Virus record (IMG/VR): IMGVR_UViG_647533158_000005
Source: a virus
Taxonomy: Duplodnaviria; Heunggongvirae; Uroviricota; Caudoviricetes
Length of the DNA stretch: 44,739 nucleotides
Direction: 5' to 3' (one strand)
Shown here: piece after piece, positions 13,889-16,288 of the stretch
Numbering within the stretch: position 1 is the first letter of the stretch
How the letters are laid out: the number at the start of each line of letters is the position of its first letter
Notes under the pieces: generated by a model
What the model was told of the DNA's origin: nothing
What the model saw: only the letters and a program-made list of their open reading frames with translations
Database searches by the model: none
Position numbers and translations under genes: made by a program

Positions 13889-14027
13889 TGCCCGAAAGCG
13901 GTGCAGAACGTTAAACGTGATGGCGATTGTGTAATGAGTTTCTCCTGCTCTGAAGATTCTTGACTAAATGGAATCATCCTTGTTATGTAAGTTGGGTTAA
14001 TGTTTTTAAATTGTTAGAGATAAGAGT

Positions 14028-14741
14028 ATGGATGACAGTACTCTACTGAGGAACTCTTCACTTTTTGTTGCTTACATGGGGTGTCTTGGGTGGGGAAGTG
14101 CTTACTTCTATGGCTGGGGTACTTCCTTTTACTATGGCTTTCCATGGTGGGTTGTCGGAGCTGGCGTTGATGATGTGGCACGAAGTCTGTTTTATGCTGT
14201 TACAGTTATCGTTATATTCCTTACTGGATGGGGAATTGGTATTATTTTCTTTTTAGGCATAAAACAAAAAAACAGTATACAGAATTTGAGTTTTATCAGG
14301 ATTTTTCTGGCAATATTGCTGCTTTTTGTTCCGCCTGTTCTGGAGTTTTCGTTAATTCATCAGCACATTGCGTCAGATGCACTGGCTTTATGTGTTATTA
14401 CAGTTTTAATAATTACGTTTCTTGTCAGGTCAGGCAGGAGGCTTATCTCAGTCAAATTTATTTCGGAAGTATCTTTTATTCGTCATCACTGGATTGAGTT
14501 CATGATGGCCGGATTTATGATTTACTTCTGGACATTCTCTCTTATTGCCGGTTGGTACAAACCCCAGTTTAAGAAGGAATATCAGACGCTCCACTATGAG
14601 AATGTCTGGTATTACGTTCTTGCTCGCTATGATGACCGTCTGGTGTTATCGACATCGTACAGAAGCCGGAGTACGAAATTCGTTATACTTAATAGTGGAC
14701 ATATTGATGATTTCGAAATTAACGTTGTCAGGATACGTTAG
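14028..14741 (+). CDS. Multi-pass membrane protein of unknown function (moron)
   Basis: 237-aa ORF with several hydrophobic Trp/Gly/Phe-rich helices and a charged C-terminal domain; about 40% GC; TTGACT promoter-like hexamer upstream. Confidence 0.55.
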   Translation: MDDSTLLRNSSLFVAYMGCLGWGSAYFYGWGTSFYYGFPWWVVGAGVDDVARSLFYAVTVIVIFLTGWGIGIIFFLGIKQKNSIQNLSFIRIFLAILLLFVPPVLEFSLIHQHIASDALALCVITVLIITFLVRSGRRLISVKFISEVSFIRHHWIEFMMAGFMIYFWTFSLIAGWYKPQFKKEYQTLHYENVWYYVLARYDDRLVLSTSYRSRSTKFVILNSGHIDDFEINVVRIR

Positions 14742-14881
14742 AATCTCCAAGCAGGTTTTTGCCTGTAAGCCTGGTACAGTACGGTAAACAGGCAGTGGTC
14801 GTGAATAGTGACTTTTTATCTTGCTGGCTTTTTCGACAAGAGTTATTGGTGTGTCACGTTAACCGGAAAAGGGGAAAAGAC

Positions 14882-15079
14882 ATGCTAAAACAGCATGATA
14901 TGACCGAAACCGCCAGAGTGGTGTTTAATGAGTTAAGCGTCACCGAACCGGCGACAGTCGGGGAGATTGCACAGAATACTTACCTTTCACGCGAACTCTG
15001 CCAGTTTATACTGACCCCGCTGGTTATGGCGGGTCTGGCAGACTATCAGTTCGGTTGTTACAGACGCCTTCAGTCCTGA
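14882..15079 (+). CDS. Hypothetical small protein (65 aa)
   Basis: Internal ATG with GGGGAAAAG upstream; lies between membrane protein and methyltransferase genes. Confidence 0.3.
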   Translation: MLKQHDMTETARVVFNELSVTEPATVGEIAQNTYLSRELCQFILTPLVMAGLADYQFGCYRRLQS

Positions 15080-15229
15080 AGGCTTTTTTATTTGTGGTAA
15101 ATGGGCGGCTGGTGGGTGTTAGTGGCACTCACCAGCCATCTGCTCATGCGTTGGGATCACAAGCAAACCTCAGGCCCACTGCTTTGCGCAAAAGCAGAAT
15201 GAGCCTATCAGAGACAGGCTTAATGATCC

Positions 15230-16288
15230 ATGCTTGATACTGTAAAAATATCCAGTTGTGAGTTAATCAACGCTGATTGCCTGGAATTTATCCAGACCTT
15301 ACCTGAAAACTCTGTCGATCTGATAGTCACAGACCCGCCATACTTTAAAGTAAAACCCAATGGCTGGGATAATCAGTGGAAGGGCGATGATGATTACCTG
15401 AAGTGGCTGGACCAGTGTCTGGCTCAGTTCTGGCGGGTATTAAAGCCCGCCGGAAGTCTTTACCTGTTCTGTGGTCATCGACTGGCATCGGATATCGAAA
15501 TCATGATGCGTGAACGCTTTAATGTGCTGAACCATATTATATGGGCGAAGCCGTCCGGACGCTGGAACGGATGCAACAAGGAAAGCCTGCGTGCGTATTT
15601 CCCGGCCACAGAGCGCATTCTGTTTGCGGAACATTATCAGGGACCGTATCGCCCGAAAGATGATGGCTATGAGGCGAAGGGCAGGGTACTGAAACAGCAT
15701 GTGATGACCCCGCTGATTTCTTACTTTCGTGATGCGCGTGCCGCTCTGGGGATAACAGCAAAACAGATTGCTGATGTCACAGGAAAGAAAAACATGGCTT
15801 CACACTGGTTCAGTGCCAGTCAGTGGCAGCTACCGAATGAAAGCGATTATCTGAAATTACAGGCATTGTTTGCCCGGGTGGCAGAAGAGAAACATCAGTG
15901 CGGTGAACTGGAAAAGTCACACCACCAGCTGGTGGCCTCATATGCATCACTGAACCGGCAGTATGCGGAGTTGCTGAGTGAATACAAAAATCTGCGGCGG
16001 TATTTTGGCGTGACGGCGCTGGTGCCGTACATGGATGTGTGGACGCATAAACCGGTGCAGTACTATCACGGGAAACATCCCTGTGAAAAACCGGCAGAAA
16101 TGTTGCATCAGATAATCAGCGCAAGCAGTCGCCCGGGAGACCTGGTTGCAGATTTCTTCATGGGGTCTGGCTCAACCATAAAAGCGGCTATGTCGCTGGG
16201 ACGTCGTGCAATTGGCGTTGAGCTGGAGACTGAGCGTTTTGAGCAGACGGTCAGGGAAGTTCAGGATTTAGTCAGTAAGAACGGATGA
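15230..16288 (+). CDS. DNA N6-adenine methyltransferase (orphan, Dam-like)
   Basis: 352-aa ORF with the DPPY catalytic motif (VTDPPYF) near the N-terminus and an AdoMet-binding-like FMGSGST motif near the C-terminus; no adjacent restriction endonuclease gene. Confidence 0.85.
   Translation: MLDTVKISSCELINADCLEFIQTLPENSVDLIVTDPPYFKVKPNGWDNQWKGDDDYLKWLDQCLAQFWRVLKPAGSLYLFCGHRLASDIEIMMRERFNVLNHIIWAKPSGRWNGCNKESLRAYFPATERILFAEHYQGPYRPKDDGYEAKGRVLKQHVMTPLISYFRDARAALGITAKQIADVTGKKNMASHWFSASQWQLPNESDYLKLQALFARVAEEKHQCGELEKSHHQLVASYASLNRQYAELLSEYKNLRRYFGVTALVPYMDVWTHKPVQYYHGKHPCEKPAEMLHQIISASSRPGDLVADFFMGSGSTIKAAMSLGRRAIGVELETERFEQTVREVQDLVSKNG

Follow-up and report, generated by a model that had tools for sequence, protein, structure and literature searches.

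The stretch of DNA analysed here (the window) is the 44,739-nucleotide virus record IMGVR_UViG_647533158_000005, a lambdoid prophage in Escherichia coli assembly GCA_000163155.1 that carries integrase, RecE-like exonuclease, DicB and YdaT genes. Behind its antiterminator gene Q, we found a facultative cassette holding the gene for a membrane protein of 237 amino acids (aa), followed by a tight module of a small winged-helix protein, an N6-adenine DNA methyltransferase (MTase) and tRNAs. The best explanation of the region as a whole, in which we place moderate confidence, is that it forms the part of the late operon nearest the promoter in a lambdoid E. coli prophage of the Shiga toxin (Stx) phage type that lacks the stx genes, and that the cassette and the module are two separable cargo units within it.

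Two separable units behind Q

An earlier note on this DNA had described the membrane gene, the small protein gene and the MTase gene as one low-GC island inserted behind Q and its terminator tR'. Every feature that it described was found where it had been placed, and the interval from Q/tR' to the lysis genes does serve as a cargo position, but the picture of a single island did not survive a comparison of related loci. We counted neighbours in two sets, one of 80 viral contigs fetched with the membrane protein, 62 of which have enough downstream sequence, and one of 80 viral contigs fetched with the MTase, of which 75, 73 or 72 could be evaluated depending on the neighbour. At the membrane-gene loci, both the winged-helix gene and the MTase gene follow in 28 of 62, neither follows in 31 and the winged-helix gene alone follows in 3. 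At the MTase loci, the winged-helix gene lies upstream by 153–183 nucleotides (nt) in 74 of 75 and a 25-mer of the tRNA with a CAT anticodon follows in 70 of 73; only 1 of 72 carries the membrane gene. The counts in both sets therefore point to two units rather than one island. As for base composition, the term low-GC fits the membrane gene (39.9% GC) but not the gene for the small protein (50.5%) or the MTase (50.0%), which equal the window as a whole (49.8%).

The same counts bear on the proposal, also made in the earlier note, that the membrane protein works together with the orphan methylase in one joint superinfection-exclusion or abortive-infection module. The two genes are adjacent and co-oriented in the window, as they are at the 28 membrane-gene loci mentioned above. 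Among 5,426 complete E. coli genomes they are likewise adjacent in about 107 (counting genomes with a single match that covers at least 80% of the query). Nevertheless, the MTase is missing from half of the 62 membrane-gene loci and the membrane gene from 71 of the 72 MTase loci, so that the genes assort independently; they differ in GC content, and homologues of the membrane protein occur outside phages as solitary chromosomal genes. Defence-system models in PADLOC gave no significant match for the membrane protein (best, AbiC, E = 0.092) or for the small protein (best, SWIM_XIII, E = 0.033), and only generic type II MTase models for the MTase. A joint module is not indicated by these results, and we regard it as very improbable.

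All three open reading frames (ORFs) are under purifying selection, with ratios of nonsynonymous to synonymous polymorphism (pN/pS) of 0.225 for the membrane protein, 0.175 for the small protein and 0.133 for the MTase, computed against 60–87 unique homologous copies per ORF. The value for the small protein, which had been noted only as a possible product, argues that this short ORF is therefore a real gene too.

The methyltransferase is a member of the M.EcoGII family

The MTase gene (15230–16288, plus strand, as are all features from Q to the tRNAs) encodes 352 aa that match PF01555 over residues 29–340 (E = 4.6e-44). A DPPY motif at residues 35–38 precedes FMGSGS at residues 310–315, which is the order of the beta class. 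By this motif order and by similarity along its full length, the enzyme is a member of the M.EcoGII family: it is identical to M.EcoGII at 314 of 349 residues (about 90%; the comparison sequence, from the supplement of PMC11551740, contains a few machine-reading errors) and to the MTase of phage 1720a-02 at 321 of 352 residues (91%), and the latter has been named as an enzyme very similar to M.EcoGII (PMC5778455). Like M.EcoGII and M.EcoGI of O104:H4 prophages, it has the DPPY motif, a central domain and FxGxG, and is an orphan enzyme on a lambdoid prophage; it differs from M.EcoGII by about 35 substitutions and by a C terminus that is 3 residues longer (352 versus 349 aa). The gene is thus not a novel orphan MTase, given its closeness to a characterized enzyme. 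That it lacks a cognate restriction gene, as the earlier note had stated, agrees with our scans, in which no restriction-endonuclease family was matched among the neighbouring ORFs and ten early-region ORFs (three of the ten had no Pfam match of any kind).

M.EcoGII methylates adenine regardless of sequence context and is part of a very large family carried by E. coli prophages (Murray et al. 2018, PMC5778455). The same paper reports that lysogens do not express it and that its constitutive expression is deleterious. The silence and the harm reported for M.EcoGII lead us to regard the window MTase as a late lytic gene rather than a moron expressed in the lysogen. Silence in the lysogen is also suggested by the sequence ahead of the gene, where there are two terminators and a start codon that is predicted to be paired.

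Alternatively, the MTase could be a sequence-specific or regulatory epigenetic enzyme that is active in the lysogen, as Dam and CcrM are. In favour of this, CcrM-type MTases are among the relatives of this orphan beta-class enzyme, and some of the roughly 10% of residues that differ from M.EcoGII lie in the central target-recognition region. However, homologues of similar divergence in O111 Shiga toxin-producing E. coli (92–94% similarity to M.EcoGI/GII) are listed as non-specific in REBASE-based tables, and no methylation motif was detectable for them in uninduced cells (PMC6602927). These data, the behaviour of M.EcoGII itself and the two terminators and start-codon-occluding predicted leader ahead of the gene make an epigenetic enzyme of this kind quite unlikely. 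The most likely role of the MTase is anti-restriction, which was one of the functions that the earlier note had put forward.

A conserved leader precedes the methyltransferase gene

The winged-helix gene and the MTase gene are separated by a leader of about 150 nt (about 15084–15232, or 15094–15232 without the terminator-like hairpin described below) that is more conserved than the adjoining coding sequence. Its median p-distance is 0.027, compared with synonymous distances of 0.157 and 0.318 for the genes on either side, and across genera it retains 80–85% nucleotide identity, compared with 72–74% for the coding sequence of the MTase. The predicted RNA fold of 15060–15245 has a minimum free energy of −74.8 kcal/mol (z = −4.29) and consists of two parts, a long hairpin and a domain in which the start codon is paired, as are the 6 nt that precede it. 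No good Shine–Dalgarno sequence was seen ahead of the MTase start. At the upstream edge, a terminator-like hairpin (15066–15083) with a T-run (15066–15093 in all) overlaps the stop codon of the winged-helix gene; across 51 loci its stem is conserved and its loop alone varies.

Substitutions in the leader follow the predicted fold. There are 1.2 variant cells per paired column compared with 4.2 per unpaired column, and 80% of the substitutions that fall on a pair keep the pairing, compared with 45–58% in controls with slid partners, the structure having been derived from the same sequences that were used for scoring. The leader is thus likely to be an RNA structure. An Rfam scan of 12900–18100 found no family in it, and it is the one element of the region that may be new. 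In a Citrobacter contig (L179), a 110-aa ORF without a family (2824–3156) sits between the winged-helix gene and the leader and is preceded by its own copy of the terminator-like hairpin. Because this insertion leaves the leader with the MTase, we assign the leader to the MTase gene.

A different explanation of the spacer is that it is a DNA operator, in which case the winged-helix protein would bind its palindromes and control the MTase as a controller (C) protein controls a restriction–modification system. The arrangement resembles such systems, and also the structured leaders that hold back or reduce the expression of restriction–modification genes: a small gene of the helix-turn-helix (HTH) class stands just upstream of a potentially harmful DNA-modifying enzyme, with palindromes between them, and the winged-helix gene is linked to the MTase at 74 of 75 loci. 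The palindromes, CTGCTTTGCGCAAAAGCAG and GGCTGGTG...CACCAGCC, are near-perfect, and the first becomes perfect, GCTTTAGCGCTAAAGC, in Cedecea and Scandinavium. By contrast with C-protein systems, there is no restriction enzyme here, the small protein is of the winged-helix rather than the Xre type, and the behaviour of the spacer is closer to that of a structured RNA: many of its substitutions give G–U pairs, which keep RNA helices but break DNA symmetry. Moreover, no promoter-like site was called in the spacer, and the Citrobacter leader stays with the MTase although the 110-aa ORF parts it from the winged-helix gene. Control through a DNA operator is possible but rather doubtful on this evidence, and it would be compatible with the explanation of the region that we favour.

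The module is carried at the start of the late operon

The winged-helix gene (14882–15079) encodes a minimal protein of 65 aa that matches PHROG 331 and whose RefSeq name is 'TrmB family transcriptional regulator'. The window protein itself gave only weak HTH_24 and TrmB matches, whereas its homologues matched DprA_WH, MarR_2 and TrmB, one DprA_WH match being above the Pfam threshold. Pfam-A and NCBIfam scans gave nothing significant for the 65-aa protein or for a 106-aa protein, and a profile of the 65-aa family searched against the PDB gave nothing meaningful.

The linkage between this gene and the MTase is kept in prophages of Cedecea, Scandinavium, Citrobacter and Salmonella, behind three different Q families, and in Salmonella and Citrobacter phages the MTase stands directly ahead of holin genes. 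As the module is found behind Q or ahead of holins, its place in all of these phages is where the late operon begins. In many Stx phages it stands ahead of stx2, in the order Q, small protein, methylase, tRNAs. The window has the same order as Stx2 phages such as 1720a-02, phiP27 and the Stx2a/2d/2g phages of the LC5678xx series, with Q, the small protein, the methylase, the tRNAs, the stx slot and a nanS-p-type esterase in succession and a nucleotide identity of 88–91%. It differs from them in having no stx genes, the slot at 16500–18003 containing an STnc100 match and no long forward ORF, and in carrying the membrane gene, which most of them lack.

Upstream of both units, the window has the elements expected of a lambdoid late-gene switch. 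The Q gene (12963–13784) encodes 273 aa that match PF03589 Antiterm (E = 2e-50), and the stx2g prophage L002 has this Q type ahead of the same module. Reading of the sequence identified a pR'-like late promoter (13790–13817; TTGATT-N16-TGgTAGATT), which is kept in L002 and differs in L001, where it lies behind a different Q; we infer that this element is active as a promoter. A terminator scan placed a tR'-like intrinsic terminator with a 7-bp GC-rich hairpin and a T7 run at 13864–13889, and both L001 and L002 keep its hairpin and T-run.

Downstream, ARAGORN found a tRNA with a CAT anticodon at 16329–16404 (Rfam tRNA model, 72.5 bits) and a second, atypical tRNA at 16407–16484 (45.1 bits). In related prophages the first is annotated in RefSeq and GenBank as tRNA-Ile or ileZ. 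For the second, ARAGORN reported a four-base anticodon, tttt, and its RefSeq homologues are called tRNA-OTHER or tRNA-Lys.

The stx slot (16500–18003) is empty in the sense that it has no long forward ORF, and its GC content is 41.6%. It contains a full-length match to the small RNA STnc100 (Rfam RF02076, 102 bits) at 17112–17301 on the plus strand, and a minus-strand ORF of 108–111 aa at 17348–17683 whose precomputed Pfam label in the source assembly, 'PmrD' (given for 17348–17674), was not reproduced by our own Pfam scans. Strong terminator-like hairpins lie inside the slot at 16727, 16932 and 17272; over 12900–18100 there are 16 terminator-like hairpins, compared with 5.0 ± 2.1 in shuffled sequences. 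The gene that follows the slot (18004–19944, plus strand) encodes a 646-aa esterase with DUF1737, SASA and DUF6645 domains, a nanS-p-type sialate O-acetylesterase of the kind that is common downstream of stx in Stx phages. Elsewhere in the window, the early region has a second low-GC cargo patch (9320–11050, down to 35% GC), which holds a divergent HTH-cupin regulator, a B3/4-domain protein and a weak monooxygenase-like ORF.

The membrane protein belongs to a small family found in prophages and chromosomes

The facultative cassette contains one gene (14028–14741), and the prediction that it encodes a 237-aa multi-pass membrane protein of about 40% GC was confirmed. Hydropathy analysis shows four strong hydrophobic segments. 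An AlphaFold2 model built from 31 close homologues was poor (mean predicted local distance difference test score (pLDDT) of 61.8), whereas a model from a 48-sequence alignment that included distant homologues reached a pLDDT of 78.3 and a predicted template-modelling score of 0.72. This model has five helices of membrane-spanning length and a small C-terminal beta domain of five strands. The positions of lysine and arginine residues suggest, by the positive-inside rule, that this inner-membrane protein has a cytoplasmic N terminus and a periplasmic beta domain. Fold searches with the model gave no informative structural match.

The earlier note had found no recognizable family for this protein. 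Local Pfam-A and NCBIfam scans agree, as they returned nothing significant (the PF27470 model is not in the local Pfam copy). Nonetheless, an identical protein carries a precomputed PF27470 'TfpB' label, as do 120 of 120 homologues, the RefSeq name of a homologue is 'STM1630 family protein', and the function-unknown family PHROG 1521 matches with E = 1e-83, so the protein does have a family, albeit one without an assigned function. The family is small: a profile search of a whole library of 1.84 billion proteins returned 71 representatives at E ≤ 0.001 and linked them to no characterized family. Its members are found in Enterobacterales, with distant ones in Neisseria and Pasteurellaceae; a genome scan with closer sequences gave only 6 loci. 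In Yersinia and Escherichia prophages the gene sits after Q. In Salmonella the homologue is a solitary chromosomal gene adjoining an sseJ-like gene, and solitary chromosomal homologues also occur in Citrobacter, Neisseria arctica and Haemophilus ducreyi.

A promoter-like element precedes the gene (13960–13989; TTGACT, an 18-nt spacer and an extended −10 of TGt-TATGTA). It had been pointed out in the earlier note, and its pattern, TTGAC[TG]-N15-19-TGTTATG, is conserved upstream of the membrane gene at 74 of 80 viral loci, including behind different Q and pR' types. With its low GC content, its own conserved promoter-like element and its presence/absence polymorphism, the gene looks like a moron. 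Because the element resembles a sigma-70 promoter and is conserved, the protein is probably made in the lysogen.

One relative is STM1630 of Salmonella Typhimurium, which has its own promoter with a −10 box at the mapped transcription start site and was picked for study on the basis of intra-macrophage RNA sequencing data (PMC6785131). It was also listed among virulence-regulon genes in transcription profiles of avirulent regulator mutants. The window protein has the same length and architecture as STM1630, and it is 44% identical to a 238-aa Salmonella homologue (P0070) that adjoins an sseJ-like gene, as STM1630 does. The settings differ, since STM1630 is a chromosomal, non-phage gene, whereas the window copy lies behind tR' in a prophage, and the upstream regions of the two genes cannot be aligned.

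Made in the lysogen, the membrane protein might by itself exclude superinfecting phages or block injection. Its place in the inner membrane and its predicted periplasmic domain would suit such a role, as would the moron character of the gene, which has a conserved promoter-like element and occupies a known cargo slot, and the family is spread over lambdoid prophages of several enterobacterial genera. Against this, PADLOC showed no significant match to known superinfection-exclusion or abortive-infection families and the model has no structural analogue, and the many non-phage chromosomal members in Salmonella, Citrobacter, Neisseria and Pasteurellaceae fit a general envelope function better than exclusion. 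We therefore consider exclusion by the membrane protein unlikely, though less so than the joint module.

The Pfam name 'TfpB' raises another option, that of an accessory factor for type IV pili. Distant homologues do occur in piliated taxa (Neisseria and Pasteurellaceae), and TfpY-like proteins are also multi-pass proteins with a cytoplasmic N terminus and a periplasmic C-terminal domain (PMC11841053). Those proteins have three helices (PMC11841053), compared with five in our model, and no pilin gene was called or recognized within about 5 kb of the homologues in Salmonella, Citrobacter and Neisseria, or in H. ducreyi, where the ORFs were read by eye. Literature searches on 'TfpB' returned only chemistry, anaesthesia and an unrelated Acinetobacter ATPase. 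The name presumably refers to an ORF of the Moraxella pilin-inversion region, although the source of the Pfam label stays unverified. A pilus function is, in our estimation, about as improbable as the joint module.

We also considered, and rejected, a lysis role for the membrane protein as a holin or antiholin, on the grounds of its excessive size, its five helices, its solitary chromosomal homologues outside phages and the distance of its gene from the lysis genes.

Discussion

Our analysis identified the genes, their linkage, the terminators, the position of the region behind Q, pR' and tR', and the conservation and predicted structure of the leader. Taking from the literature on a close homologue that the MTase is non-specific, silent in the lysogen and harmful when constitutively expressed, we propose a model in which the timing of expression, the benefit against restriction, and the roles of the leader, the winged-helix protein and the membrane protein are as follows. 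The first unit (13960–14741) would be a low-GC moron whose membrane protein is made in the lysogen from its own promoter-like element, with additional transcription by Q-dependent read-through; the protein would act in the envelope, where a host-envelope or an exclusion function can only be guessed at. The second unit (14882–16484) would hold the winged-helix protein, the structured leader, the M.EcoGII-type MTase and the tRNAs as one conserved module. In the lysogen, tR', the terminator at 15066–15093 and the start-codon-pairing leader would keep the harmful MTase off. After induction, RNA polymerase that has started at pR' and been modified by Q would pass both terminators, and the MTase would then methylate adenines of the replicating phage DNA in any context, so that packaged genomes would be shielded in the next host from restriction systems that are blocked by N6-methyladenine. 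At other times the leader, perhaps together with the small protein, would limit expression of the MTase.

Several observations weigh against parts of this model. The TTGACT element was not called by a simple promoter scan and has a weak −10 hexamer. The terminator scan found no terminator between the membrane gene and the winged-helix gene, the next one being that at 15066, and the two genes may be co-transcribed where they are adjacent. STM1630 has no established phenotype: no effect on intracellular replication or growth has been reported, and mild hypermotility was seen in a single screen. Covariation in the leader is limited, consisting mostly of one-sided GC/GU changes with 3 double-sided pairs across genera, and its palindromes could serve as DNA operators instead. 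Finally, the non-specific activity of the window MTase is extrapolated from an enzyme that is 90% identical, and the window enzyme could differ from it.

The MTase part of the region and the order of the genes are already known, and the window is for the most part a known arrangement that can now be annotated correctly. As for the interpretation offered in the earlier note, its suggestion of anti-restriction stands as likely, its joint exclusion or abortive-infection module is unlikely, and its descriptions of an island and of a protein without a family need correction. More tentatively, the winged-helix protein, the leader of about 150 nt and the non-specific MTase might together form a gating circuit, in which the leader would be an undescribed cis-regulatory RNA that masks the start codon until it is opened late in the lytic cycle, possibly with the help of the small protein. 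As a separate matter, the membrane protein might represent a new kind of prophage envelope or exclusion factor. We think that this bolder proposal is less probable than not by a considerable distance, yet somewhat better placed than the operator explanation discussed above.

M.EcoGII is a widely used laboratory reagent. DNA similar to our query (the end of Q, the membrane gene, the winged-helix gene, the MTase and the tRNAs) is present in 3,417 of 5,426 complete E. coli genomes, and most of the matches listed cover the part from the winged-helix gene to the tRNAs. Because the module lies between the late promoter and the toxin genes in Stx phages, its terminators and leader are part of the Shiga toxin transcript. 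The membrane proteins, for their part, are a small unexplored group common to prophages and to the Salmonella chromosome, where the gene stands beside sseJ. If the proposed mechanism is true, the gating by a leader of a harmful methylase that acts in any context would illustrate cleanly, and in a testable way, how phages control dangerous cargo.

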